From contig JAZSGY010000015.1 of NCBI GenBank assembly GCA_045532985.1, positions 7,743-71,742 on the forward strand: 64,000 nucleotides of DNA, in the 5' to 3' direction. Shown in pieces: positions 9,704-64,000 of the stretch. The stretch is from Eubacteriales bacterium. Its GTDB lineage: Bacteria > Bacillota > Clostridia > Oscillospirales > CAG-272. The notes beneath the pieces were generated by a model. That model saw only the letters and a program-made list of their open reading frames with translations, was not told the origin of the DNA and made no database searches. The translations under genes were made by a program, and so were the position numbers. The first letter of the stretch is position 1. The number at the start of each line of letters is the position of its first letter.

Positions 9704-9779
9704 TGGTGCTCCTGCGGAGACTCGAACTCCGGACACCTTGATTAAAAGTCAAGTGCTCTACCGTCTGAGCTACAGGGGC
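9704..9779 (-). tRNA. tRNA-Lys (anticodon UUU)
   Basis: The reverse complement reads GCCCCTGTAGCTCAGACGGTAGAGCACTTGACTTTTAATCAAGGTGTCCGGAGTTCGAGTCTCCGCAGGAGCACCA. It has D and T arms, anticodon loop CTTTTAA and an encoded CCA. One C-A mismatch sits in the acceptor stem. Confidence 0.9.
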
Positions 9780-20625: not shown

Positions 20626-21477
20626 TTATCCGATAATGCTCTTCAGATGACGGTATGCCTTCTCGATGTCTGCGACAGGGTTTTCGCCGACCTCACGCTC
20701 GATCGTCAGGTAACCGCGGTAGCCGATATCGTCAAGCGCGGCAAGATAGCGGTCAAACGGAACGCTTCCCTCGCCGAGAGCGACCTCTTTAAAATATCTG
20801 ACGCCCTTCACTTCCTCGGGAATCGGATGTACAACGCGATAAATGTACTCGGGATTGCCGTCCTGCAGCTTGATACCGTCCTTTGCGTGGGTGTGAACGA
20901 TATAATCCTTCAGCGTATAAACGGCGGCAACGGGATCGTCGCCCGTAACCATCACGAGGTTGGCGGGGTCCAGATTGACACCGACACCGTGTGAGCCAAG
21001 CGAATCAAGGAACGCTTTCAGCTCCTTTGCGCGCTCAGGACCGGTTTCGACCGCGAAGTGAGCGTCGATGGAGTCGGCATATTCAGCGAGTGCAAAGCAC
21101 GCCTCCTGCATGATCTTATAGCGGTCGTGCGTAGGATCTGCGGGCACGACACCAATATGCGTGGTTACGATATTGGTCTCCATCTCCTTTGCAAGATCCA
21201 TAATGCGCTTCGACTTTTCAACCAGCTGCGGGTTCTTTTCGGGATTGCCAAAGCCCTGACCGAGGTCGCCGCAGATCGCCGAGAAGCAAAGCCCCTCCGA
21301 TTTTACGAAGTCCAAAAGCTCGCGGCGTGCGGTCGCACTGAAATTCTCGGGCGCGTGTTCGCCGTTCGTGCAGTACATCTGCAGACCGTTGATCCCCATT
21401 TTTGCCGCCATTTTTACAGCCGTATAGGTATCCTGGCGGAAGGATTCAAGAATTGCACCAATCGGAAAAGAATACAT
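20626..21477 (-). CDS. sugar phosphate isomerase/epimerase (xylose-isomerase-like TIM barrel)
   Basis: 283 aa with the pattern typical of this family (ICGDLG, HIGV, FAVETGPE, NLDPANL, HAKD...EV.LGEG.V). Confidence 0.75.
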   Translation of the reverse strand: MYSFPIGAILESFRQDTYTAVKMAAKMGINGLQMYCTNGEHAPENFSATARRELLDFVKSEGLCFSAICGDLGQGFGNPEKNPQLVEKSKRIMDLAKEMETNIVTTHIGVVPADPTHDRYKIMQEACFALAEYADSIDAHFAVETGPERAKELKAFLDSLGSHGVGVNLDPANLVMVTGDDPVAAVYTLKDYIVHTHAKDGIKLQDGNPEYIYRVVHPIPEEVKGVRYFKEVALGEGSVPFDRYLAALDDIGYRGYLTIEREVGENPVADIEKAYRHLKSIIG

Positions 21478-21574
21478 AATGAAAACCTCTCTTTGTTGTA
21501 TTTAATTAAATTATATAGCAAAAACCCATAGAATGCAATGAAAAAAAATTGTTAAATTCTTTCAAAAAATTGAC

Positions 21575-21895
21575 TTACAAGTACAAAAAGGCAACACCTT
21601 CGGTCCTTTTCATAAAATCTGCATCCGCTTCAAGCGCGGGCAGCTTATTCAAGAGATACTGCGTAGCACCGTCGTCGCTTGCTATCTTCTCGCCGAGGAT
21701 GGAGCATAGAATCCTCCCCTCCTTCTGACAGCGGCGCAAGGCCTTTTGCAGCTCGTTTTTCATACAGAGCGGAAACCCGATCTTGATCGCTCTGTATCCG
21801 CGCGCCCGCGCGGACGCCAGCGAGAATTCAAATTCACGGCAAAACGCGTTTTTCTCCTCCGCACAGAGCGTCGTGCTTTCAATCAACTCTGCCAT
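21575..21895 (-). CDS. small hypothetical protein (about 106 aa)
   Basis: The ATG at 21895 is preceded by GGAGG, which overlaps the stop of the upstream dehydrogenase. No family recognised; a weak resemblance to Smr-type small domains is not supported further. Confidence 0.45.
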   Translation of the reverse strand: MAELIESTTLCAEEKNAFCREFEFSLASARARGYRAIKIGFPLCMKNELQKALRRCQKEGRILCSILGEKIASDDGATQYLLNKLPALEADADFMKRTEGVAFLYL

Positions 21896-21896
21896 A

Positions 21897-22850
21897 TCAA
21901 CCTCCATCCACGCGGTTACGCCGTTGCCCATCCAGAAAGGCGCGGATATTTTCAACAGACTCCCCGAGGCAACGCACGCGTGCCTCGTATGCGCCCCACG
22001 CCATATGGGGCGTCAGGCAGACGTTTTTATACCCGATCAGCGTTTGATAGGGGTGTGTCAACGGCATCGGCTCGGTGCTGTAAACGTCAACGCCGAGTGC
22101 GCCGATCTTTCCGCTTTTCACAGCCTCTGCAACCGCGCCCTCATCCGTGACGGCACCGCGCGCCACGTTGATGAGAATGACGCCGTCCTTCATTTTCGAA
22201 ATGGCGGTGGCATCGATCAAATGATGCGTCCGATCACTGAGCGGTGTATGCAGGGAGATCACGTCGGACTCCTTCAAAAGGCGCTCGAGAGAAACGGTTC
22301 CGTCCCCCTCGGTCGGGTGTTGACGGCACGCCAACACGCGGCAGCCAAGCGCCCGCGCAACCTCTGCAACCCTTTTTCCGATATTTCCGTAACCGATCAC
22401 ACCCCAGCATTTTCCCGCAAGCTCTCTGTAAACGGGTGTCAGGCGGTTCTGCACGCCGCTTGCGGTATATGAGCCGTCAATTACAAAATCGCGGTATTCA
22501 CGTAGGTGTGTCGCAAGAGACAGCGCCATAGAAAGTGTGACCTGTGCCACGCTGTCCGTAGAATATCCGCGCACGTTACACACGGCAACGCCGCGTGCCG
22601 CACACGCGGCCGTATCAACGTTGTCATAGCCCGTTGCAAAAATGCAGATCAAACGCAGCTTCGGTGCTGCAGCAAGTGCCTCTTCCCCGATCTTCACCTT
22701 GTTGAGCAGAATGATCTCTGCATCCCGTAGCCGCGAAGGAAGCTCGGACGCCTCGGTATTTGGATAAACCGTCAGCTCTCCGAATTCAGCCAACGGCGAA
22801 AGGTCGAGATCTTTGCCGAGCGTATCGGCATCCAACACCTTTACGGTCAT
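21897..22850 (-). CDS. D-isomer-specific 2-hydroxyacid dehydrogenase (glycerate dehydrogenase-like)
   Basis: The NAD-binding motif GVIGYGNIGKRVA and the catalytic-region pattern NVARG...D...L, P H (TPHMAWG). Confidence 0.85.
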   Translation of the reverse strand: MTVKVLDADTLGKDLDLSPLAEFGELTVYPNTEASELPSRLRDAEIILLNKVKIGEEALAAAPKLRLICIFATGYDNVDTAACAARGVAVCNVRGYSTDSVAQVTLSMALSLATHLREYRDFVIDGSYTASGVQNRLTPVYRELAGKCWGVIGYGNIGKRVAEVARALGCRVLACRQHPTEGDGTVSLERLLKESDVISLHTPLSDRTHHLIDATAISKMKDGVILINVARGAVTDEGAVAEAVKSGKIGALGVDVYSTEPMPLTHPYQTLIGYKNVCLTPHMAWGAYEARVRCLGESVENIRAFLDGQRRNRVDGG

Positions 22851-23437
22851 TTTGCGGCATCTCCTTCAAGGAAATAGGTCGCTTCCATATCCGCGGTCGA
22901 AAGTGCAAACGCCAAGGGAAACATTTCAAAAGCACTTCCGACGTTGCGAGGATCCTCCGTGCCCGAAAAGCCCATGTGGTAACGGATGGCGAATGCCTCC
23001 TCCCGCGTGAGCTTCATATATCCCGAAATAATGTAGACCGATTTTTCTCCGTGTCCGTAGGGCATCTTATCATCAAACTCATAGGTCGGAACAGTCTGCC
23101 ATTTTCCGTTTTCATCCTTCACGTTTCGCGTACCGGGCTTGTAGCAGTTCACCTTACAAAGATCGTGCAAGAGAGCAACGATCGCAATGCTTTCGGGGTC
23201 AACCGTCAGCTTGTAGGTATCGCGCACGCGTTCGCGCTCCAGATAATTCAAAAGGCAGTCGTAAACGTTCAGGCTATGCCGCACAAGCCCGCCCTCATAC
23301 GCACTGTGATAGCGCGCGCTTGCGGGTGCTGTAAAAAAATCAGACGCGCGGGATTCGAGAAAATCAAGGAGCTTATCTGCCCCATCACGCTTGATGAATT
23401 GCTTATATATCTTTATAAAACGTTCTCTTTCGTTCAT
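22847..23437 (-). CDS. HD-domain phosphohydrolase
   Basis: YH...GGLVRHSL and LLHDLCK provide the H...HD metal ligands. The ATG at 23437 follows ggagg. It overlaps the downstream dehydrogenase by 4 nt. Confidence 0.75.
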   Translation of the reverse strand: MNERERFIKIYKQFIKRDGADKLLDFLESRASDFFTAPASARYHSAYEGGLVRHSLNVYDCLLNYLERERVRDTYKLTVDPESIAIVALLHDLCKVNCYKPGTRNVKDENGKWQTVPTYEFDDKMPYGHGEKSVYIISGYMKLTREEAFAIRYHMGFSGTEDPRNVGSAFEMFPLAFALSTADMEATYFLEGDAAK

Positions 23438-23506
23438 AAAGCCTCCAAAAAACATCGTTGACATTTACATTGTAACACATTTTTGTTGGGCTGTCTACCT
23501 TTTTAA

Positions 23507-23537
23507 AGGAAAAATGCACGGGATCCGTGCATTTTTT
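23507..23537 (-). terminator. hairpin terminator after the HAD hydrolase gene
   Basis: Palindrome aaaatgcacgg-gat-ccgtgcatttt flanked by A-runs and T-runs. Confidence 0.75.
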
Positions 23538-23546
23538 CGCTCAAAT

Positions 23547-24365
23547 TTACGAATGGCTGCGAAGGATCTCAAGGATCGTTCCGCAATCGTCCATAATCAG
23601 CGTGGGGCGTACGTCAGAGGCGGCAAGGATCCTTTCGTCGGTTTCACCGCTCATCACAAGCACGCTGACTGCCCCTGCATTGTTACCGCATTTCACGTCG
23701 GTATATATACGGTCACCCACGACCATCGTGCATTCAGGGGTCACGCCCTTGATCTGCATTGCAAGCCTCGGCATTAATGCCTCGGGCTTTCCGATTACGA
23801 GCGGACGCTTCCCCGTTGCGTGAAAGATCATTTCACAAACCGCACCGCAGTCGGGAACGCTTCCGTATTCGGTAGGGCAAACGAGGTCGGGATGCGTCGC
23901 AACGTAACGCACCGCACGCGTGCAAAGGATCTTGGACACGTCCTCAAGCTTTTTAAAATTCAGCTCGGTGTCAAAGCCCATCACGATACACTCAACCTTG
24001 TCGATGTCGTCGGTCAGCTTAAGACCCGCCTTTTCCATTTCAAGGCGGAGCGATGCAGTTCCCTCGACGTAGATCAGCTCGTCGGGGCAGGTGTTCAGCA
24101 AATAGTGAATGGTGGCTTGCGATGAGGTAATAAAATCTTCTGCCTCTGATTTAATTCCGAGTTTATCAAGTTTTTTGACGTAATCTTCAACCGATTTGGA
24201 AGAATTGTTGGTCATAAACATATAGTTTCGACCGCTTTTGCGTATGGCTGCAAGCAGCTCCTTCGTAAACGGAAAAAGCTGATTTCCAAGATAGAGCGTG
24301 CCGTCCATATCGAACAAAAACAGCCGCGAATTCAGAACCTTATCGATCGTTTCCTGTGGTAGCAT
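23547..24365 (-). CDS. HAD-IIA family hydrolase (NagD-like sugar phosphatase)
   Basis: Motif I FLFDMDGTLY, motif II MTNNS and motif IV VGDRIYTD. Confidence 0.85.
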   Translation of the reverse strand: MLPQETIDKVLNSRLFLFDMDGTLYLGNQLFPFTKELLAAIRKSGRNYMFMTNNSSKSVEDYVKKLDKLGIKSEAEDFITSSQATIHYLLNTCPDELIYVEGTASLRLEMEKAGLKLTDDIDKVECIVMGFDTELNFKKLEDVSKILCTRAVRYVATHPDLVCPTEYGSVPDCGAVCEMIFHATGKRPLVIGKPEALMPRLAMQIKGVTPECTMVVGDRIYTDVKCGNNAGAVSVLVMSGETDERILAASDVRPTLIMDDCGTILEILRSHS

Positions 24366-24411
24366 TTTCTCCTCCTCTATTCAAGACTGTTATCTGTTAA
24401 AATTCTAACAC

Positions 24412-24441
24412 AAAAACGGGGATCTGTCAATCCCCGTTTTT
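24412..24441 (-). terminator. rho-independent terminator of the five-gene redox operon
   Basis: Stem aaacgggga / tccccgttt with an 8 nt loop. On the minus strand it is followed by ttttt. Confidence 0.8.
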
Positions 24442-24445
24442 ATGT

Positions 24446-25432
24446 TTATGCCATTGTTTTGAGCATTGGAAGCGTGACCTCATAAAGCGGCGCTTCAGCT
24501 TTTTCAAAGCGTTCCGCCTCCTCGATCATATACTGCGCCATACGCTGGACCTCAAGACCGCTACTCCCTGCGGAATGCGGTGTGAGGATCACGTTCGGCA
24601 GCGTATAAAACAGGCTTCCCTCACGCGGTGGCTCGGGGTCGGTCACGTCAAGGATCGCCGTCAGCGTCGGATCGCTTTGAAGTGCCGCGATCAGATCCGA
24701 CTCGACGACCTGTGCCCCGCGCCCCGTATTGATAAAGGTGCTATATGGCTTCATACGACCGAACAGATCACCGTGAAGCATTCCAACCGTTTCGGGAACG
24801 TTCGCAAGATGGTTGGAGATCACGGGGCAAAGGTCGAATATCTCCTCAAGACTCGCGGCGGTCACGCCAAGCTCTCTTGCGCGAGCTTCATCGACCTCGG
24901 GCGAAAACACGTACAGATCAACGTCGTGCCGCTTCAGCTCGTGAAGCACGCGCATACCGATCGCGCCCGTCCCGAGAATGCCAACCCTTGCACGGAAGTT
25001 CCCCGTAAAGCGTTCGATTTCGGAGTGTGCGGCGGCATAGTTGTTCTTCGTGCCGCGGGCAAGGTAGAAAAAGCCCTTGTTCGCGAGCAGGATCATCGCG
25101 ACGCTACACTCAACGACGGGGACGGCATTGGCGTGCCAAGCACTGAAGATCCGCACGCCACAGCGAAGGAAGGGCTCCGCAAAGCCTTTCACCGATCCTG
25201 CGGCATAAAAGATCGCCTTCAGCTTCGGCAGATACTTTTTGATTTCTTCCTCTGTCAACGAAGGCATTCCCCACGTAGAAAAGATGTATTCAGCGTCACG
25301 GATCCGTCCGATATCATCTCTTGTGTAGGCGGTAGAAACGACGCCGTATCGCTCTGCAAGCAAAGCCTTCTGTTCTGCCCCGAAAACACGGTCGCATCCG
25401 TCGGGACGGTTATTGAAAAATACAGCCTTCAT
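24446..25432 (-). CDS. 2-hydroxyacid dehydrogenase-family NAD-binding protein
   Basis: NAD motif GILGTGAIGMRV, a NTGRG...D block, and PH(SAG) near the C-terminus. Confidence 0.8.
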   Translation of the reverse strand: MKAVFFNNRPDGCDRVFGAEQKALLAERYGVVSTAYTRDDIGRIRDAEYIFSTWGMPSLTEEEIKKYLPKLKAIFYAAGSVKGFAEPFLRCGVRIFSAWHANAVPVVECSVAMILLANKGFFYLARGTKNNYAAAHSEIERFTGNFRARVGILGTGAIGMRVLHELKRHDVDLYVFSPEVDEARARELGVTAASLEEIFDLCPVISNHLANVPETVGMLHGDLFGRMKPYSTFINTGRGAQVVESDLIAALQSDPTLTAILDVTDPEPPREGSLFYTLPNVILTPHSAGSSGLEVQRMAQYMIEEAERFEKAEAPLYEVTLPMLKTMA

Positions 25433-27291
25433 TGTTTTTTCCTCTTATTCCAGACCTTTTCAAACCAAAGCTCTCTGTCGTACGGGATCGGGCGAACGGG
25501 ACGCTCGGAGCTTTTGACACATCCGTCAGTATACTGCGTCAGGATCTTGCGGCTCTGATACCCGACGTCCTCGGGGATCGCTTCACCCTCCGCCGTCAGT
25601 ACCAACGCACCGCCGCGTGAGCCTGCGTGCATTGCGGCGTAGATCATTCCGTCGGCATAGGATAGCTGCGTGCAAAGCGTGTCGCGCACCTTGAAGAAGG
25701 TCGGTAACTCACTCTGCTCCTTCCATTTGCAAAGGGACGGAAAGCTCTTCCACAGGGTCTCGATCTCCTCATACGCTCGCTTCATCTGAATGGGATCGCG
25801 CAAAAAGGCAAAATGCTTACTCATCGTAGCCGCAGCCTTTTCGTATACGGCAGCACAGGTGGAGCGATCGCCCCTGCTCCCTTCAATTATAAAACGAAGC
25901 TCGTCCGCCTCTTTTTCGGGATCGCACGGAATCGGTATGCGATCTTCAAGACTTTCAATATGCCGTGCGATACGGATACCGGAGACCTGCGTGGAATTCA
26001 GTGCCGATCCGCCCGGGCGGGTCACGCCGTGCGTGCTTGCCGCTTCCCCCGCAACGTAAAGACCGTCGATATTCGTCTGCCAATTCACGTCAACGTCGGC
26101 ACCGCCGTTGTTGTGCTGGGCACAGACCGCGATCCTCAGCGGTTCGCGTGCCAGGTCGATGCCATTTGCAAGATAGAGCTCGTAAGCACCGCGATTCATT
26201 TTCAAAAGCCGTGAAAGCGGCGTTTCGATCAGCGCATCGGAATTGGAGAGATAGGTGCGTGCCTCATCGGAGAGAATCGCAAAACCGCCGTCGGCAAGTG
26301 CTGACGGCTCCTCTCTGAAATCGAGATAAACGCGCCGACCGAGCACGACGGACTCACGGTACACGCAAAGATCGATCTTAGAGGAAGCATCTTTTTTTGC
26401 GGCGTGGAAGGGCCATTCATATCCCTTCAGAAATACGTCACGCAGTGCATCCTTCGGATCGTCATAATAGTCGTAAAGGAATTCGCGCGTGTTTCCTTGC
26501 TGATCCACGGAGATATAACGAGGCAGAACCTGCTGATAGGTTCCCGACAGATTCCAACGAAAGTCGGTCGAGGCAATACCGTACTGCCACTCCGCGACGT
26601 TCGAAAAGCAAACGCCTGCCTCAAGCAACAGCGAAGAAAATCCCGTATGGGAAACAGGATATACACGATCGTTGTAGATCCCCGCAGGGCCGCCCGTCGC
26701 CACAACGACGTAACGGCAGGGGTAGAAAACAAGGCCGTAATCATCATCGGTGCGCGCCGTGTTCATTGCAAGGACACCGCAGACCTTCCCCGCCCGCGTG
26801 ACGATACGAAGCGCAAGAATTCCGTCAAGGACGGGAACGCCGTAGCGCTCCGCGCGCGCCTCCAGCACCTCAGTCATTCTTTTCGAGGTGTAGGGGCCGA
26901 CTGAGCTTGCGCGCGGACGGCTGTCGTGGTCGGTTCTGTACCCCACGAACTCGCCGTATTCATTTTGCGGAAATTCGACGCCGAGCGAGACCAGGCGGTA
27001 AAAGGCGCGGACGGAGGACGCCGCCTCGCAAAGCGCAACGTCGCCGTCAACGGCACCGCCGTCAAAAAGCGTCCTTGCCATCTCGATTGCCGAATCGGGC
27101 ACGTCGTCTGCGGTCGAGACCTTGAAATAGGTCTGCTTATCGCTTCCCGTATTTCGAGAGGTGCCGCACAGCTTTCCCTCGCTCAGTATCGCAATATTTT
27201 TGATCCCATCCTCGTAAAGACAGCCCGCGGCGTTATAGCCTGCACAGCCCGTTCCGATCACGATGGCAGTAAACGGTGCTTCGATCCTCAT
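25429..27291 (-). CDS. FAD-dependent oxidoreductase of the fumarate reductase / aspartate oxidase / ketosteroid dehydrogenase superfamily
   Basis: N-terminal dinucleotide fold AIVIGTGCAGYNAA and the C-terminal FAD clamp GLYVAGEAAS..GVTRPGGSALNS. The ATG at 27291 follows ggagg, 1 nt after the SDR stop. Confidence 0.8.
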   Translation of the reverse strand: MRIEAPFTAIVIGTGCAGYNAAGCLYEDGIKNIAILSEGKLCGTSRNTGSDKQTYFKVSTADDVPDSAIEMARTLFDGGAVDGDVALCEAASSVRAFYRLVSLGVEFPQNEYGEFVGYRTDHDSRPRASSVGPYTSKRMTEVLEARAERYGVPVLDGILALRIVTRAGKVCGVLAMNTARTDDDYGLVFYPCRYVVVATGGPAGIYNDRVYPVSHTGFSSLLLEAGVCFSNVAEWQYGIASTDFRWNLSGTYQQVLPRYISVDQQGNTREFLYDYYDDPKDALRDVFLKGYEWPFHAAKKDASSKIDLCVYRESVVLGRRVYLDFREEPSALADGGFAILSDEARTYLSNSDALIETPLSRLLKMNRGAYELYLANGIDLAREPLRIAVCAQHNNGGADVDVNWQTNIDGLYVAGEAASTHGVTRPGGSALNSTQVSGIRIARHIESLEDRIPIPCDPEKEADELRFIIEGSRGDRSTCAAVYEKAAATMSKHFAFLRDPIQMKRAYEEIETLWKSFPSLCKWKEQSELPTFFKVRDTLCTQLSYADGMIYAAMHAGSRGGALVLTAEGEAIPEDVGYQSRKILTQYTDGCVKSSERPVRPIPYDRELWFEKVWNKRKKQ

Positions 27292-27292
27292 A

Positions 27293-28033
27293 TCAAAGCC
27301 TCCGCAGGTGGAATCCACCGTCGGCATTCAGGACGGTTCCCGTTCCGAAATCGAGCAATCCCGACGCGGCGGCAAGCACGCAGTCCGCAACGTCTTCGGG
27401 CTCGCCCCATCTTTTGATCGGCGTCACGCCGTCCGCGATCAGCGCATCGTATTTTTCGGTCACGCAAGCAGTCATAGCGGTATGAATGATACCCGGGCGC
27501 ACCTCGAAAACGGGAATTCCGTAATCGGCAAGACGAGCGGCAAAGAGCTGGGTGATCATCGAGACTCCCGCCTTCGAAATGCAGTATTCGCCGCGCGACA
27601 CGCTTGCGGTATACGCCGAGATCGAGCCGATATTGACAATGCGGGGGGTGTATCCGTCGGTCGCCTTTGCCTTTTGCGCGATCATGTGATTGGCAAAGGT
27701 CTGACACATAAAGAAGGTTCCCTTCGTGTTGACGTTTATCAAGCGTTCAAAGCTCTCCTCAGTCGTTTCCAGGATGTCAAGACGCTGCTTGCAGGCAACG
27801 CCCGCACAGTTAACGAGCAGATCGAGTCTGCCGAAATCCGCCTCCACCGACTTCAAAAGCGCTTCGATTTGCTCCACTTTGGAAATATCGCAAAAACGGC
27901 TTTCAAAACCGTCGGGCGTATCCTCTCCGTTAGGGCAGGTGATCATCACGCGGTAGCCCTCCTTTTGCAGTGCCTTGGCGATCCCAAGACCGATGCCGCG
28001 CGTTCCTCCGCTTACAAGTGCTGTTTTTTGCAT
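27293..28033 (-). CDS. short-chain dehydrogenase/reductase (SDR)
   Basis: The cofactor motif ALVSGGTRGIGLGIA and the catalytic YCISKAG (YxxxK). Confidence 0.9.
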   Translation of the reverse strand: MQKTALVSGGTRGIGLGIAKALQKEGYRVMITCPNGEDTPDGFESRFCDISKVEQIEALLKSVEADFGRLDLLVNCAGVACKQRLDILETTEESFERLINVNTKGTFFMCQTFANHMIAQKAKATDGYTPRIVNIGSISAYTASVSRGEYCISKAGVSMITQLFAARLADYGIPVFEVRPGIIHTAMTACVTEKYDALIADGVTPIKRWGEPEDVADCVLAAASGLLDFGTGTVLNADGGFHLRRL

Positions 28034-29226
28034 GTTACATTCTCCTTATAAAGATTTCGATAGGGTTCATCCATAATCGCGCAGCCCGCATAGCAGCCCG
28101 CACGCATCAGCTCGGTACAGCGCGAGCAGGTCAGGCAGAGCTTCTTCGGATCGATCCCGCCTGCAAGATGGTCGCGATAAAAGGTGGGATAGGCGAGGAT
28201 CTGTCTGCCGAAGCCGACGAAATCGCAGATCCCCTCGCTGAGTGCTTCGTTTGCCTTCGCCATCATATCCTTACCGTAGTAGGTAAAGCCTGAGCCAACG
28301 ATGGGAAGCGTCGGATTTGCCGCACGCACCACTGCCGTCAGATCGTGGAAGCGTGAAAGACCGACGTCGGGCGTTTCGGGCGGAATATACGCACCCTTTT
28401 TATAGGGGCGATTGACGTGCGGATTGTAATAGGGGTTACCGACGGTAATATTGAGAAGCTCGATTCCCCGCTTCCGCATCTGCTCGATCAGGCGCAGGGT
28501 CTCGGTAAGATCCGCATTCCCGTTTTCATCGGTTGCAAAGCCGTTCGGATATGCCACCATATCCGAAAGACCGAAGCGGCTCGCGAGGATAACGTTTCCC
28601 GACACGGCAGATTTTGCCGCCTCAATACAGCCGAGAAACAAACGCGTTCGGTTTTCAAAGCTACCGCCGTACCGTCCCTCACGCTTGAAGGCGGATAGCG
28701 ATTCCGACATCAGATAGCCGTGACACGCCTTTACGTCAACGCCGTCAAAGCCAACCTTCTCCGCAAGGCGGGCGGATGCCTCGAATTTTTCGGGAAGTGC
28801 GTCAAGATACGCGTCAGCAAGGATCTCACCACCGCGACCGCGTGCCTCATACACCTCGTTTTTATACATCACAGTCGGGTGATAGCTCTGTCGCCCCGAG
28901 TGCGTCAGCTGCAAAAACAGCTTCGGCGCATAGCCGCAGCTTTTCACCGCCGTCTCTCTTACCTGCTCGAGCAAGCGACGGAAAACGTCGGCATTCTCCT
29001 TTGTCAGATACATCTGCCGTAAATTGGTACGTCCTTCCTCGCAGACGGCGTTTGCCTCAAACCACAAAATAGCGGCGCCGCCCTCTGCAAGACGCAAATA
29101 CTTTCGTACCGTATAGCTGTCGGGCTCACCGTTTTGCTTACAGTCAAAGCCCTCCATCGGCTGAAAGACAATGCGATTAGCAATTCTCTGACCGCAAAGT
29201 GTAAATTCTTTATTTACCATTGTCAT
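28012..29226 (-). CDS. Old-Yellow-Enzyme-family flavin oxidoreductase with a Cys-rich C-terminal tail
   Basis: The OYE blocks QPMEG, LQLTHSGRQ and GFDGVDVKACHGYLMSE. The tail CLTCSRCTELMRAGCYAGC looks like an Fe-S ligand set. The start at ATG 29226 forms an ATGA overlap with the upstream stop. Confidence 0.8.
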   Translation of the reverse strand: MTMVNKEFTLCGQRIANRIVFQPMEGFDCKQNGEPDSYTVRKYLRLAEGGAAILWFEANAVCEEGRTNLRQMYLTKENADVFRRLLEQVRETAVKSCGYAPKLFLQLTHSGRQSYHPTVMYKNEVYEARGRGGEILADAYLDALPEKFEASARLAEKVGFDGVDVKACHGYLMSESLSAFKREGRYGGSFENRTRLFLGCIEAAKSAVSGNVILASRFGLSDMVAYPNGFATDENGNADLTETLRLIEQMRKRGIELLNITVGNPYYNPHVNRPYKKGAYIPPETPDVGLSRFHDLTAVVRAANPTLPIVGSGFTYYGKDMMAKANEALSEGICDFVGFGRQILAYPTFYRDHLAGGIDPKKLCLTCSRCTELMRAGCYAGCAIMDEPYRNLYKENVTCKKQHL

Positions 29227-29978
29227 TCTCCTACCAATTCGTGTAGCGTTTTTGCGTCCTGCAGGAAATTCTCCGGAAGATCGTCCTTTGCAAATTCCAA
29301 AACGTACGGCCGCGCGCCGATCAGGGCGATGTAAGCCTGCCAATCCCGTAGATTTTCGGAGAGCATTTTCCGCACGGTCCTCTCTCCGTATATCCAGTTG
29401 TAAACGTGAACGTTTTCAATGTGCGAAGCGAGCCTTTTGATATCCTCAAGGTTTCTTTCGTAAGGGTGGATCGGTTGCCAATAGGTTCTGAGGTTTTGCG
29501 CCCCCACCGCATTCAGAAGGCGCAAGGAGCTTTCAGCCGTATCGTTATAGGTGCCGTTATGAAATTCGATCCCGATACGAATACCGTAGCCGCTTGCCAT
29601 TGCGGCATATTCCTTCAGTGCAGAAGCGTCGGTCAAAAAAACATCCTCCGTACAGTCGGCAGACGGCGTTTTCCTTGCCCAGATCCGCACGACGGGCGCA
29701 CCGAGTGCCGCCGCCGTTTCAAGGACCGTTTGAAAATATTCCGCGCCGTGTCCATTCTCACCGAGCGTGAAGTAGCTGCCATAGGACAATACCGAAAGCC
29801 CTGCCGCAGAGGTCTTCTCACGCGTGTTGCTTGCCGTTTCAAGCTCACCCGGCGGGACGTGAATATCGCCGCCCCATTCGATCCCATCAAGCCCCGCTTT
29901 CTTTGCCAGGGCAATAACGTCATCAACGCCAAGCGAACGGAAGGTAACCGATGTAAGTGCAAGCGTATGCTGTTTCAT
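29223..29978 (-). CDS. sugar phosphate isomerase/epimerase-like TIM-barrel protein
   Basis: 251 aa. GLDGIEWGGDIHV, VVRIW and IGIEFHNGT fit the xylose-isomerase-like barrel family. It is the first gene of the operon. Confidence 0.7.
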   Translation of the reverse strand: MKQHTLALTSVTFRSLGVDDVIALAKKAGLDGIEWGGDIHVPPGELETASNTREKTSAAGLSVLSYGSYFTLGENGHGAEYFQTVLETAAALGAPVVRIWARKTPSADCTEDVFLTDASALKEYAAMASGYGIRIGIEFHNGTYNDTAESSLRLLNAVGAQNLRTYWQPIHPYERNLEDIKRLASHIENVHVYNWIYGERTVRKMLSENLRDWQAYIALIGARPYVLEFAKDDLPENFLQDAKTLHELVGE

Positions 29979-30061
29979 ACTTCATTTCCTCCTTGTATCC
30001 CCATTTTATCAAAGATTTTGGAAATATACAATTTCCATTCTCACGAAATACATTTCCAATC

Positions 30062-30090
30062 TTGCATTTTTTGCAGACTTATGGTATAAT
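30062..30090 (+). promoter_or_regulatory. sigma-A promoter of the AraC-family regulator
   Basis: TTGCAT (30062-30067), a 17 nt spacer, then TATAAT (30085-30090). It lies in the divergent region shared with the redox operon. Confidence 0.6.
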
Positions 30091-30115
30091 CAAAATTCAA
30101 GGAAGGAGAGTCATT

Positions 30116-30934
30116 ATGAAACTGTCTGAAAGCATAAACGCATATATTTCGGATACGACCCTTACGGTAGGAAACGTATACGAGAAGCATTGCCATACGG
30201 AATACGAGCTGATCTATCTGTTGAACGGTAGCGTACTGATCAATCTTGAGGGTGAAAAGATCCTGCTGACCGAAAAGGATGCGATCCTGATCTCTCCTTT
30301 GTCCTATCACATCGTAAGCGGCCGCGGCACGGCATACCGCCGTCTGATCATGAGGTTTTCTGTCGAGGACGTTCCCGCCGAGATCCGTCCGCTCTTAGAA
30401 AAGGGAGCAAAGGCCTCCCCTGTCAACCGTGACGCGCAGCTCTCAAAGCTCCTCGCAAGACTTGCGGATGTGCTTGAAAACGGGGACGAAATCTACCGTC
30501 CGCTGGCGTACGCTTGGCTCACCGAATCGCTCTACTTCTTCATTCATCCCGATCACGCGAAACAAAGAAACGAACCAAAAAGCACGGGAATGATCAAGGA
30601 AACGATCGCCTATATCGACGCGCACCTTGACCGTAACGTCACCGTGCGTGAGCTTGCAAGCCTTCTTTACTGCTCGGAATCCACCTTAAACCACGTCTTC
30701 AAAAAGGAAATGAATATCCCGATCAAGCAGTACGTGATCGATAAGAGGATCGCTTATGCAAAGGCAAAACTTGAAAACGGCATCCCACCGCTCGAATGCG
30801 CTACGCTCTGCGGTTATCGAAATTATCCTGCCTTTTATAAGATCTTTGTTAAAAATACGGGACTCTCTCCCTCAGGCTACGCAACAAAATCCCAAAAAGA
30901 CCTTGACAACGTCGCGGATGATGTGATAATATAA
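30116..30934 (+). CDS. AraC-family transcriptional regulator (cupin sensor plus HTH)
   Basis: An N-terminal cupin-like HCHTEYELIYLLNG and a C-terminal AraC HTH (LASLLYCSESTLNHVFKKEM...CGYRNYPAFYKIFVKNTGLSP). The ATG at 30116 follows ggaaggag. Confidence 0.9.
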   Translation: MKLSESINAYISDTTLTVGNVYEKHCHTEYELIYLLNGSVLINLEGEKILLTEKDAILISPLSYHIVSGRGTAYRRLIMRFSVEDVPAEIRPLLEKGAKASPVNRDAQLSKLLARLADVLENGDEIYRPLAYAWLTESLYFFIHPDHAKQRNEPKSTGMIKETIAYIDAHLDRNVTVRELASLLYCSESTLNHVFKKEMNIPIKQYVIDKRIAYAKAKLENGIPPLECATLCGYRNYPAFYKIFVKNTGLSPSGYATKSQKDLDNVADDVII

Positions 30935-50017: not shown

Positions 50018-50091
<74 letters not shown>

Positions 50092-50095
50092 AAAT

Positions 50096-50171
50096 GCGCT
50101 TGTAGCTCAGTGGATAGAGTGCCCGGCTACGAACCGGTAGGTCATAGGTTCGAATCCTATCAGGCGCGCCA
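50096..50171 (+). tRNA. tRNA-Arg (anticodon ACG)
   Basis: GCGCTTGTAGCTCAGTGGATAGAGTGCCCGGCTACGAACCGGTAGGTCATAGGTTCGAATCCTATCAGGCGCGCCA. The anticodon loop is CTACGAA and CCA is encoded. Confidence 0.9.
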
Positions 50172-51525: not shown

Positions 51526-51793
51526 TTATGTATCTCCTTTTCTAACAAAAAACCCGCCATAGCCGTGTAGAGCGAAATATGACCCTGCCAGTGCAGGTAG
51601 GTGTCCGCTCCCGTACATTGTGCTCCCAGCGTCCGATGCGTTCGGTAAATACGGAACGGTCGGGAGGTCTGCATACCCGAAACGGGAATAAAGACTCCAA
51701 TATCATGTTTGTAGGTCCAATTATCACTCTATCACGAACCAGGCAGGCTGATCTTCTCTTTTATCTTATGACGGAGCGCGTGAGATTATACGG

Positions 51794-62557: not shown

Positions 62558-62633
62558 CGGGGTGTGGCGCAGTTGGTAGCGCGCGACGTTTGGGACGTCG
62601 ATGCCGCAGGTTCGAATCCTGTCACTCCGACCA
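62558..62633 (+). tRNA. tRNA-Pro (anticodon UGG)
   Basis: CGGGGTGTGGCGCAGTTGGTAGCGCGCGACGTTTGGGACGTCGATGCCGCAGGTTCGAATCCTGTCACTCCGACCA. It folds as a complete cloverleaf with anticodon loop TTTGGGA and an encoded CCA. Confidence 0.92.
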
Positions 62634-62670
62634 AAAAGCCTTGAAAACATTGTGTTTTCGGGGCTTTTTA
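62634..62670 (+). terminator. composite hairpin after tRNA-Pro
   Basis: aaagcc..gaaaac-attgt-gttttc..ggcttt followed by tta. About 29 nt of it are homologous to 62432-62460, downstream of the tRNA fragment. Confidence 0.55.
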
Positions 62671-62703
62671 CAATATACCAATTTAATTGAGGTGAATATC
62701 AAA

Positions 62704-64000
62704 ATGGCAAAAGAGTTTAAAGTCTTTTTCTCTTGGCAATCTGATTTATCAGCCAACCAAACAAAACTTTTCATCGAAGAAAGCATCGAAATGGCAAAAA
62801 AACTTTTGCCTGATTCGATAACACTTATTCCAGACGAAGCTACACGTAATCGTTTAGGATCACCAGATATAATGAATTCAATTTTTGAAAAAATTGATGA
62901 CTGCGATTTGTTTATCGCAGATGTCAGTATTGTGGGGCAATACTCCCTGCCTGCCGAAGAAGGAGAAGATCCTATAATCAAACATCTCCCCAATCCTAAC
63001 GTTCTTCTTGAATTAGGATATGCTGCAGCGCGCATTTCTTGGGACAGATGTATTTGTTTTGCTAATACTAAATTTGGTTCTGTTTCACAATTGCCTTTCG
63101 ATTTAAATCACAGAAGAATAACCGACATTTCATATGAAAACAGTACTCGTAAGCAGAAAATTTCTGACATCGCAGAGATAATCAAATCAACTGTACTCGC
63201 TTACGCAGATAAACCTATTGCAAAAATCGGATTCGCACACCACATGATAGGCTGTTTTGATTTTAATAGTGGCGACATTGTAGGTGAAATTATTCCTTAT
63301 AACAACGTCACCATGGATGCGTATTGTAGAAAAACTCAAACATTACTCGAAAAAGCCAAAGCAACAGTTATTGAAATTTCAGAAATCAAACTTCCTGCTA
63401 AAACAATTGTTGTGGAAGAAGATTTTGAAGAAAAAAATGGGGACATGACTATCAATGATATTTTAAAAGATCCTGAATTGTCCAAACAATTTTCGTTAAT
63501 AACATCAAATGCCCATGATGTAAAAATTGACAAAGAATATATAACTGCAAATACAAAAAAATACTTTGGCATTGATATTGAAGATAGCTTTTATAATGTA
63601 GGCAATTTACAAGAGTGTTCATCCATTATCCCTCATACCCCTCCTTCTTTAGAAGGATCAGATTTAGAAAAGAAAAAATTTAATTTGATTGAACAATTAG
63701 AGGGTATGTTTGCAAAAATCGAGTTAAGAGAAGTTTTTCGAAAATTATTTGATGATATCCTCATTATTCCACTGTCGATAAAAAATGCGTCAACCAAAAA
63801 TGACGAAAGAATATCGATTAATATTAAAATTAACCAAGGAATGCCTATACGTCCCACATCAAAGTTTTTTGATCCCGATTATGCTGGATTGGAAGGATTG
63901 GTATACGATGAGCATTTGATAAAAGAACTATTGAAACTGCCAGAAAGCAGTCTAATCAAGTACGATTCATCGTTTCCCAGAGAAGCAATATCCCCAGTTG
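62704..64000 (+). CDS. large uncharacterised protein with an N-terminal TIR / nucleoside 2-deoxyribosyltransferase-like domain; 3' end outside the window
   Basis: I translated 62704-64000 by hand and found 432 codons with no stop. An RBS gaggtg lies 9 nt upstream. The N-terminus is KVFFSWQSD...CDLFIADVS...NPNVLLELGYAAA...PFDL. This ORF is absent from the supplied track because it is open-ended. Confidence 0.8.
   Translation, partial: MAKEFKVFFSWQSDLSANQTKLFIEESIEMAKKLLPDSITLIPDEATRNRLGSPDIMNSIFEKIDDCDLFIADVSIVGQYSLPAEEGEDPIIKHLPNPNVLLELGYAAARISWDRCICFANTKFGSVSQLPFDLNHRRITDISYENSTRKQKISDIAEIIKSTVLAYADKPIAKIGFAHHMIGCFDFNSGDIVGEIIPYNNVTMDAYCRKTQTLLEKAKATVIEISEIKLPAKTIVVEEDFEEKNGDMTINDILKDPELSKQFSLITSNAHDVKIDKEYITANTKKYFGIDIEDSFYNVGNLQECSSIIPHTPPSLEGSDLEKKKFNLIEQLEGMFAKIELREVFRKLFDDILIIPLSIKNASTKNDERISINIKINQGMPIRPTSKFFDPDYAGLEGLVYDEHLIKELLKLPESSLIKYDSSFPREAISPV

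Follow-up and report, generated by a model that had tools for sequence, protein, structure and literature searches.

A conserved redox operon of anaerobic gut Firmicutes that combines a short Fe-S old yellow enzyme with a short-chain dehydrogenase and a flavoprotein resembling fumarate reductase, and its possible role in sugar-acid metabolism

We analysed a stretch of 64,000 nucleotides from a Eubacteriales bacterium (Oscillospirales, CAG-272; NCBI GenBank assembly GCA_045532985.1, contig JAZSGY010000015.1, positions 7,743 to 71,742 of the forward strand), hereafter called the window, and in it a five-gene operon on the minus strand. This operon is a conserved, uncharacterised cytoplasmic redox module of anaerobic Firmicutes. 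Its core is a trio of genes, encoding a short old yellow enzyme (OYE) with an iron-sulfur (Fe-S) motif, a short-chain dehydrogenase/reductase (SDR) and a flavoprotein of the FrdA/SdhA fold (here the FAD protein). We tentatively read it as a sugar-acid (uronate) module for lyase-derived unsaturated or keto-deoxy uronates, with an electron path from the OYE over its Fe-S cluster to the FAD. We give this reading somewhat less than an even chance; the substrate, the direction of the electrons and the formation of a complex are what we infer. The features of the operon, with positions in the window and lengths in amino acids (aa), are the following.

30116-30934, plus strand: AraC-family regulator (AraC_binding cupin and HTH_18, by Pfam)
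29979-30115: divergent intergenic region of 137 bp, the expected site of both promoters (putative)
29223-29978, minus strand: TIM1, a xylose-isomerase-like, AsbF-like TIM barrel, 251 aa (PF01261, AP_endonuc_2)
28012-29226, minus strand: short OYE with a predicted C-terminal [4Fe-4S] motif, 404 aa (PF00724, Oxidored_FMN, as sole Pfam match)
28081-28137, minus strand: codons for the predicted [4Fe-4S] ligands C364-x2-C367-x2-C370-x11-C382, invariant in 51 homologues
27293-28033, minus strand: classical SDR of the PRK12745 type, 246 aa (adh_short; NCBIfam NF009386)
25429-27291, minus strand: FAD protein, a flavoprotein of the FrdA/SdhA fold, 620 aa (FAD_binding_2, PF00890)
24446-25432, minus strand: HADH1, a D-2-hydroxyacid-dehydrogenase-like protein, 328 aa (2-Hacid_dh_C, PF02826)
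24412-24441, either strand: hairpin terminator closing the operon (12-bp stem, A5/T5 flanks)

The related loci were gathered via the FAD protein, six from genomes by a single-sequence scan, 80 from metagenomes by an alignment-based scan and several by look-ups with called genes, after which near-duplicates were removed; all counts are therefore conditional on the FAD protein. Three look-ups that started from OYE homologues returned the full OYE-SDR-FAD trio each time. The trio recurred in ~90 loci of anaerobic gut Firmicutes. The SDR gene lay directly upstream of the FAD gene in 56 of the 64 loci with enough flank (a 57th case, locus L055, was not counted since the two genes overlap there), and an OYE was found in 51 of 55 loci, immediately adjacent in 40. 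The OYE-SDR-FAD order was shared even by loci of only 43-58% identity, whose samples were termite and human gut, fermenters and bioreactors, and this arrangement is far beyond chance. Carriers included Butyricicoccus pullicaecorum DSM 23266, two Agathobaculum genomes, Subdoligranulum variabile, and metagenome-assembled genomes (MAGs) of Oscillospiraceae and Lachnospiraceae. TIM1, HADH1 and AraC-type regulators were frequent yet variable partners of the trio: HADH1 was present in at least 12 related loci, often beside TIM1, and TIM1 in 11.

An earlier note on this DNA, made from the letters alone, had described a tightly joined set of five genes divergent from an AraC/cupin regulator. Coordinates and junctions bear this out, and the recurrence shows the operon to be co-conserved: the list of open reading frames (ORFs) and a reading of the junctions gave the same order, overlaps, hairpin terminator and divergent AraC gene, and the Pfam families of the five genes and the regulator are those that had been named. 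TIM1 and OYE meet in an ATGA (29223-29226), OYE and SDR overlap by 22 nt (28012-28033), one nucleotide (27292) separates the SDR from the FAD gene, and a further ATGA (25429-25432) joins the FAD gene to HADH1. The hairpin at 24412-24441, with the stem AAAAACGGGGAT-loop-ATCCCCGTTTTT, is able to terminate on both strands and was the sole strong terminator-like site past the gene set. A GGAGGA precedes the TIM1 ATG. Because a GGAGG lies 9 nt ahead of the FAD-gene ATG, the FAD protein was taken as 620 aa and not as the 632 aa of the maximal ORF; the OYE start in the NCBI call of an identical protein (P0121, 402 aa) is two codons further in. On the opposite strand, the AraC gene ATG (30116) is preceded by the ribosome-binding site AGGAAGGAGA and, at ~30084-30089, by a TATAAT that is a putative promoter element. 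From its position, the AraC protein would be expected to regulate the operon. The set was said to contain no transporter, kinase or CoA gene, and indeed neither the ORF list nor Pfam gave one between 20.6 and 30.9 kb of the window.

Members of the trio also occur as gene fusions. In a MAG (NCBI GCA_964351455.1, locus L101, 8001-11255), the protein P0417 (1084 aa) combines the OYE-[4Fe-4S] part, a joint of ~16 residues and the FAD protein; a TIM barrel gene lies before it and an SDR gene after it, and a sodium:solute symporter and a DegT-type aminotransferase are encoded upstream. Given this natural fusion, it is probable that the two flavoproteins function as one unit. Further fusions were OYE::SDR (locus L032), TIM1::HADH1 (locus L034), and an OYE fused to a Fer4_20 and Pyr_redox_2 module that is GltD/PreT-like (locus L079, 6532-9162). 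A [FeFe]-hydrogenase-like gene was found between OYE and SDR in locus L046 (2345-3571), and flavodoxin-Fer4 genes adjoined the trio in some loci, with a flavodoxin and a 4Fe-4S protein near the OYE in locus L056 (14021-14806). The fusions and the adjacent electron-donor genes together make an OYE-FAD functional unit plausible and the OYE cluster an apparent electron hub.

Judged by its sequence, the OYE is indeed short, with an Fe-S motif and no FAD/NAD(P)H domain. PF00724 covered residues 13-350 (1.1e-22), Pfam detected no Pyr_redox_2 (PF07992) in it, and the protein stops 22 residues past its last Cys ligand (C382 of 404). This agrees with the claim of the earlier note that the fused domain is missing. 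All of the 120 best homologues were single-domain proteins of ~400 aa, and at least ~8000 homologues were scored in a search of 5.8 billion proteins. The CxxCxxC-x7-C-x3-C tail reported before is present as written; C364, C367, C370 and C382, the predicted [4Fe-4S] ligands, were invariant across 51 homologues, but C378 was not conserved among them. The Cys spacing is close to that of the FadH motif. K166, H169 and Y171, at the position of the YqjM His-x-x-His-x-Tyr motif, were invariant as well (n=51). An AF2 model of the OYE (pLDDT 89.7) was compared by Foldseek; the best E-values were those of classical OYEs, and query coverage was highest for NCR and FadH (TMq 0.77-0.79, versus ~0.70 for classical OYEs), which fits the extra Fe-S segment.

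The short OYE shares its barrel and the four-Cys [4Fe-4S] motif with FadH, BaiCD, BaiH, OsrA/B, IsmB and the long form of BilR, but it lacks the C-terminal PF07992 domains of the FadH/BaiCD type. In NCBIfam it scored 75-90 bits, whereas the models of NamA, BilR, BaiCD and the mycofactocin OYEs have cut-offs of 425-1078 (BaiCD 75 vs 825, bili_reduct_N 79 vs 425, NamA 90 vs 431). Orthology to known steroid, bile-acid or bilirubin reductases was rejected on these scores and because OsrA/B and IsmB are long two-domain proteins. The comparison with BaiCD and OsrA/B that the earlier note had proposed thus returned a common barrel and Cys motif, and neither the second domain nor a score above cut-off. 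OsrA/B, IsmB, long BilR and BaiCD have all been described as PF00724 plus PF07992 enzymes. Since the IsmB phylogeny and a 2020 survey of Fe-S flavoenzymes drew only on two-domain sequences of 600-800 aa, the short forms were never covered by published surveys.

For the FAD protein, an AF2 model (pLDDT 81.8) was ranked by Foldseek nearest to FrdA/SdhA, then to PAPS/APS reductase alpha subunits and NadB. The top 35 matches were FrdA/SdhA proteins and one PAPS reductase alpha subunit (E down to 3e-27, TM 0.65-0.74). The model has the four-domain fold of FrdA, SdhA, NadB and APS reductase, including the C-terminal helical domain; members of this fold class, NadB excepted, dock an Fe-S subunit. No KstD was among the top 50 Foldseek matches, all of which were FrdA/SdhA, APS/PAPS reductase or NadB. 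A KstD-like role was ruled out by fold; the earlier placement in the FAD_binding_2 family, said to include fumarate reductase and KstD, therefore holds for its fumarate reductase side and not for KstD. Orthology to a named enzyme was not indicated either, the best NCBIfam score being 93 bits against a cut-off of 453 (NadB, TIGR00551), with every Sdh/Frd model lower. The family is large, with ~640 clusters at 50% identity (<=1e-30, profile search of a 50%-identity library) and at least ~8000 homologues scored in the 5.8-billion-protein search.

The FAD protein shares its overall fold with FrdA/SdhA, NadB and the APS/PAPS reductase alpha subunits, and a profile alignment placed its H393 and R425 at H355 and R390 of E. 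coli FrdA. It differs from complex II in several respects. Identity is 16-20%, and FrdA H232 aligns with Gly238, which is invariant in the family. The capping domain, site of the shuttle Arg, was unaligned between the two proteins. The family motif GTSRNTGSDKQT has Arg46 at the place of the flavinylated His of FrdA, His44; this is a by-eye alignment, since the computed one does not cover the position. In homologues from E. coli and Rhizobium the Arg46 position is Ala. The FAD is thus probably bound non-covalently, as far as the residues indicate. Non-covalent FAD and loss of the second-carboxylate His have been described for FAD_binding_2 reductases of mono-carboxylic enoates. No gene for an FrdB/SdhB- or AprB-type Fe-S subunit was present in the window or the related loci, and the operon's sole Fe-S protein is the OYE.

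Homologues of the FAD protein were also found by tblastn in plasmid records of E. coli and Rhizobium, at 35-37% identity over 91-98% of the query. The E. coli homologue (693 aa, 36% identity over 98% of the query) belongs to an island between ytfB and rplI (locus L092, 4895-13818) that encodes a TetR regulator, a PRK12745 SDR (419 bits on the model), a TIM barrel, a crotonase, a CoA transferase, the FAD homologue and a TRAP transporter. The island was present in 3153 of 5426 complete genomes (58%), always under generic names given by PGAP, and a literature search on it gave nothing relevant. It has the FAD homologue and the PRK12745 SDR in common with the trio; it lacks an OYE, and its CoA transferase, crotonase, TRAP transporter and different TIM barrel set it apart. 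The Rhizobium homologue sits with an LgdA-like Gfo/Idh/MocA dehydrogenase, a kinase of the 2-keto-3-deoxygluconate (KDG) type, a class I aldolase and an ABC system. It follows from these relatives that the FAD enzyme can work without an OYE, and the association of greatest age is the pair of SDR and FAD protein. The OYE-FeS protein may, on one reading, be a redox partner that strict anaerobes have added, and respiring bacteria could instead dispose of the electrons by other means.

The chemistry of the trio is better compared with enoate reductases in which an OYE-like module is coupled to an FAD_binding_2 module than with the enoate and dienoyl-CoA reductases. In the Klebsiella NADH:fumarate reductase (FRD) and the Vibrio NADH:acrylate reductase (ARD), an OYE-like module takes in NADH and passes electrons to an FAD_binding_2 module via a one-electron mediator; the pocket of the latter varies at the second-carboxylate residues. 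The trio resembles them in the coupling of OYE and FAD_binding_2 proteins, seen as conserved adjacency and as the P0417 fusion. The mediator of FRD and ARD is a covalent FMN in FMN_bind, whereas in the trio it would be the [4Fe-4S] cluster; FMN_bind (PF04205) had no match in the OYE, the FAD protein or P0417. Unlike FRD and ARD, the trio's FAD protein has the complex-II-type C-terminal helical domain, and the modules are usually separate genes with the SDR gene between them.

Short BilR reportedly depends on a separately encoded, flavodoxin-like BilS. The trio would be alike in having a short OYE-FeS protein with a separately encoded partner, but the partner in the window is an FrdA-like FAD protein plus an SDR and not a flavodoxin, and the bili_reduct_N score is the low one given above. 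The earlier note had spoken of a split enoate reductase. The P0417 fusion speaks for this idea, but the partner has an FrdA/SdhA-like fold and not that of Pyr_redox_2. The idea that the FAD protein simply stands in for the reductase domain which the OYE lacks is made less convincing by the OYE-less homologues of Proteobacteria and partly rehabilitated by the fusion. The structural point of the earlier note stands in so far as the OYE is a truncated Fe-S form in need of a partner, and the fusion suggests the FAD protein as this partner.

Under the uronate reading, the short OYE (FMN and one [4Fe-4S]) and the FrdA-like protein would pair up for electron transfer along FMN-[4Fe-4S]-FAD. NAD(P)H would be oxidised at one flavin, most simply the OYE FMN, by analogy with FRD and ARD. 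At the second flavin, that of the FrdA-like pocket, a C=C bond conjugated to a carboxylate or carbonyl of the substrate would be reduced; this pocket appears to retain the carboxylate-binding His/Arg pair and to have lost the second-carboxylate His. The SDR would then reduce, or would first oxidise, a neighbouring keto or hydroxyl group. The AsbF-like TIM1 and HADH1 may act as a dehydratase/isomerase and dehydrogenase pair on the same ring-shaped hydroxy-acid, and the AraC protein may be the sensor of the substrate.

Of the operon proteins, the SDR was the only one above any curated NCBIfam cut-off (NF009386, PRK12745, 298.9 bits vs 250); the model name, '3-ketoacyl-ACP reductase', is generic and assigns no function. 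PDB sequence searches with the operon proteins gave distant relatives only, and the best match of the SDR, 4da9, was deposited merely as 'Short-chain dehydrogenase/reductase'. KduD models scored 119-131 bits against cut-offs of 339-369, a general SDR-level relation (1e-38). TIM1 matched no NCBIfam model. A profile of eight TIM1 homologues against the PDB found AsbF (3dx5, 3-dehydroshikimate dehydratase) at 1.9e-22, followed by IolI at 3.5e-5, so that AsbF is its closest solved relative; the TIM1 context is one of lyase and sugar genes and not of siderophore or quinate genes. The active-site residues of AsbF are Y70, R102, E142, H144, D172, H175, H198, K200 and E253 (PMC9324987). In the alignment, which spans profile positions 2-195 of 250, TIM1 keeps Y70, R102, E142, H144 and H198 as Y69, R98, E138, H140 and H191, all invariant in the family. 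The metal ligand D172 is replaced by Q168, and the product-binding H175 as well as K200 are lost; E228, beyond the aligned stretch, is a possible equivalent of E253. HADH1 matched PF02826, the NAD-binding domain, at 3.9e-37, gave no match to PF00389 and stayed below all NCBIfam cut-offs.

The genomic context was surveyed by Pfam on 253 immediate-neighbour ORFs, three genes on each side, of 71 loci. AraC proteins were matched by 18 of these ORFs, xylose-isomerase-like TIM barrels by 15, 2-Hacid_dh_C and Gfo/Idh/MocA by 11 each, PfkB and Hepar_II_III_C by at least four each and KDPG aldolase by at least three; FGGY kinases, GH3 and ABC sugar components were also recurrent. The neighbouring PfkB kinase is of the KDG-kinase type. 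None of the 253 ORFs was a CoA, sterol or flavonoid gene. Loci L047 and L098 have a heparinase-like lyase gene between OYE and SDR; in L003/L004, L049 and L055 such a gene follows the operon directly. The L098 lyase matched PL33 structures at 2.4e-85, and PL33 enzymes cleave hyaluronan, heparosan, chondroitin sulfate and gellan, which are glycans containing GlcA. Depending on the locus, the operon is flanked by genes of GH2, GH3, GH20, GH28, GH43, MFS_2, ABC sugar and TRAP proteins. The trio of Butyricicoccus and Agathobaculum stands between two Gfo/Idh/MocA genes and a TRAP transporter with GH28; locus L096 adds MFS_2 transporters, GH2, GH43 and a YhcH-family gene, and L098 adds GH20 and a BNR protein.

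The association with lyases, a KDG-type kinase and KDPG aldolase is shared with the known route over KduI/KduD (DhuI/DhuD) to KDG and on through KdgK and KdgA. That route has no role for two flavoproteins and an Fe-S cluster, and neither KduI/DhuI nor the GH88 hydrolase was seen in the Pfam-annotated trio loci or among the recurrent neighbours. A trio-free locus in Virgibacillus halodenitrificans (L099, 3725-10765) encodes a Gfo/Idh/MocA protein, DUF993, a TIM barrel, a 2-hydroxyacid dehydrogenase, a TIM1 homologue and heparinase II/III. The TIM1 homologue and the dehydrogenase are directly beside the heparinase gene, and genes for a glycerate kinase, a sulfatase and an ABC system are close by. 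The arrangement resembles a further lyase-linked route, also undescribed, with the TIM1-HADH pair in common.

In sum, the uronate reading draws on the co-conservation of the trio (56/64 and 51/55 loci), the fusions, the invariant cysteines and the Fe-S-docking fold class, together with the FRD/ARD precedent, the sugar-acid context and the conserved equivalents of FrdA H355 and R390. Several observations weigh against it. The E. coli and Rhizobium homologues keep nearly all invariant residues of the Firmicutes family without any OYE, so the FAD enzyme is not strictly dependent on an OYE. Tyr171 and His169 of the OYE are typical of substrate-reducing ene-reductases, and in view of the NADPH-type fusion in L079, the OYE FMN may be a substrate site fed via the cluster and not the NAD(P)H site. 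The OYE::FAD fusion was one case among the 150 best family representatives, and fusions on metagenome contigs may arise as artefacts of assembly or of frameshifts. Only a minority of loci had a lyase or KDG-kinase gene, and the operon in the window has no adjoining lyase, transporter or kinase; the window flanks were searched for sugar genes and held housekeeping genes only (enolase, TatD, holB, rsmI, P-type ATPase and similar). The resemblance to AsbF points equally to hydroaromatic acids.

The same sugar-acid pathway could also be served by three independent enzymes acting in sequence, with no wire between OYE and FAD. The OYE would be an ene-reductase fed by ferredoxin or flavodoxin, as short BilR would be by BilS, the FAD protein a stand-alone, NadB-like enzyme, and the SDR a ketoreductase. 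The logic from enone to ketone to alcohol would be that of equol formation, where DZNR, DHDR and THDR bring the OYE-FeS, SDR and FAD_binding_2 superfamilies to bear in series on an enone; the likeness to the trio is at the superfamily level only, DZNR being of the long form and the context and host taxa being different. The conserved OYE-less homologues and the catalytic-type H169 and Y171 speak for this explanation, as do four Firmicutes loci (L021, L035, L037 and L088) that have the FAD gene without SDR or OYE, the separate donor genes next to some OYEs (hydrogenase-like, flavodoxin-Fer4, GltD-like fusion), and NadB itself, which functions without an Fe-S partner. But an OYE::FAD fusion exists, the trio genes are strictly adjacent, and most loci, the window included, encode no other electron donor for the cluster; we regard independent enzymes as a possibility, though a doubtful one. 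In a further, bolder version of the wired scheme, OYE-[4Fe-4S] plus the FrdA fold would be a new Fe-S flavoenzyme class, FMN-[4Fe-4S]-FAD, divided between two genes and joined into one in certain bacteria; with electrons from NAD(P)H, H2 or ferredoxin it would reduce C4=C5 of lyase-derived unsaturated uronates, or of enoates like shikimate. We consider this version unlikely. A literature search for an OYE or FrdA link to unsaturated uronates gave nothing relevant.

Other substrates have to be weighed too. Hydroaromatic or cyclitol carboxylic acids (quinate, shikimate, 3-dehydroshikimate) are a serious alternative, with the OYE acting on the dehydroshikimate enone, the FAD protein on the shikimate enoate and the SDR on the ketone, in what would be the long-sought reductive pathway with these plant acids as electron sinks, towards dihydroshikimate and products of the cyclohexane-carboxylate type. 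TIM1 is by far nearest to AsbF and retains the catalytic Glu-x-His, Arg and Tyr, and many family members carry the JGI label '3-dehydroshikimate dehydratase', assigned by automatic transfer. The habitats of the loci, guts of termites and herbivores, are plant-fed. In the E. coli island the homologues of the FAD protein and the SDR are accompanied by a crotonase, a CoA transferase and a TRAP transporter for carboxylates, a gene set that resembles alicyclic-acid beta-oxidation, and a literature search found no paper that assigns genes to a reductive quinate/shikimate route. However, no shikimate/quinate dehydrogenase or dehydroquinase was among the recurrent neighbours, D172, H175 and K200 of AsbF are not kept, and the lyases, glycoside hydrolases, KDG kinase and KDPG aldolase indicate sugars. 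The likeness to AsbF fits both substrates, since a 4,5-unsaturated uronate is, by chemical inference, a ring-oxygen analogue of shikimate and its 3-keto form one of dehydroshikimate. The weight of the context points to uronates and sugar acids, and we hold the hydroaromatic substrate to be improbable. Slightly more improbable is another carbohydrate route via 3-keto sugars, by glycoside or C-glycoside oxidation and elimination or of the inositol type. There, Gfo/Idh/MocA or HADH proteins would produce a keto-sugar, elimination or dehydration by a TIM barrel would turn it into an enone, and reduction of the enone would fall to the trio. Gfo/Idh/MocA proteins with a low-score likeness to IolG and levoglucosan dehydrogenase are among the commonest neighbours, TIM barrels of several subfamilies go with the trio, and the Rhizobium homologue stands beside an LgdA-like dehydrogenase, a KDG-type kinase and an aldolase. 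No known pathway member reaches its cut-off, though, and such pathways are not known to need an OYE or an FrdA-like enzyme. The earlier note had proposed conjugated C=C/C=O systems such as bile acids, steroids, flavonoids and cinnamates as substrates; hydrophobic compounds of this kind, steroid hormones among them, would need no transporter. The transporter-free window and the enzyme classes of the Osr, IsmB and equol papers agree with them, and OYE, SDR and FAD_binding_2 are the three families that make up the equol pathway and serve in parts of the bai pathway. They fare worst of all, and are very improbable: the characterised steroid and bile-acid Fe-S flavoenzymes are all of the long form, the OYE scores 75-79 bits against cut-offs of 425-825 (BilR, BaiCD), the FAD protein has the FrdA/SdhA fold and not that of KstD, and the ~90 loci have a carbohydrate context without CoA, sterol or flavonoid genes among the neighbours.

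Downstream of the terminator, four more genes lie on the minus strand of the window, assigned by Pfam/NCBIfam.

23547-24365, minus strand: HAD-IIA phosphatase
22847-23464, minus strand: HD protein
21897-22850, minus strand: HADH2, a second 2-hydroxyacid dehydrogenase
20626-21477, minus strand: TIM2, a second TIM barrel

These genes (20626-24365) may belong functionally to the operon. A TIM2 homologue of 50% identity adjoins the FAD gene in locus L037, and one of 68% identity is encoded near the operon in L047; HADH2 has both PF02826 and PF00389. For the HAD-IIA phosphatase, the HD protein and HADH2, no linkage to the operon was seen in other loci. A near-consensus promoter-like site (TTGACA-17-TAGAAT, with TG) on the minus strand at 24402-24430 overlaps the terminator hairpin, just upstream of the HAD-IIA phosphatase gene; because of it, the downstream genes may be a separate transcription unit. 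The TIM barrels linked to the trio were not a single family: hhalign gave probabilities of 7-29% for TIM1 against TIM2, the TIM of the E. coli island and a 262-aa TIM, and this candidate grouping was ruled out.

In four other loci (L026, 5339-6010; L020; L023; L066), the gene that directly follows the FAD gene encodes a DUF6198 membrane protein, which may be the missing transporter of those operons. Elsewhere in the window, a 6S RNA was found on the minus strand at 51547-51752 (Rfam RF00013, 50.1 bits), tRNA-Gly and tRNA-Arg at 50018-50171 and tRNA-Lys at 9704-9779. Past the tRNA-Pro (62558-62633), G+C drops to ~39%, compared with ~52% elsewhere, with no long ORF up to the window end (64000); this stretch (62558-64000) could be the edge of an integrated element.

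The earlier note had not recognised this gene set as a described operon, which agrees with our searches: apart from the generic SDR model no curated family cut-off was reached, and the neighbourhood and homology checks matched no known pathway, characterised sugar routes included, and found the genes co-conserved. Neither the curated libraries nor the literature searched explain the trio or the E. coli island. The trio is widespread, with close relatives among butyrate producers of the human gut (Butyricicoccus, Agathobaculum, Subdoligranulum) as well as in digesters and termite gut. If the sugar-acid reading is true, a missing short type would be added to the catalogue of gut Fe-S flavoenzymes, together with a new wiring of an OYE to a fumarate-reductase-like flavoprotein. 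If the enzymes reduce C4=C5, this would be an electron-sink route for uronic-acid glycans in strict anaerobes that bypasses GH88 and KduI/KduD. Cultured carriers make the sugar-acid reading directly testable; if it holds, the operon would represent an unrecognised step in the use of uronic-acid polysaccharides (glycosaminoglycans, pectin, gums) or plant hydroaromatic acids by Gram-positive anaerobes.

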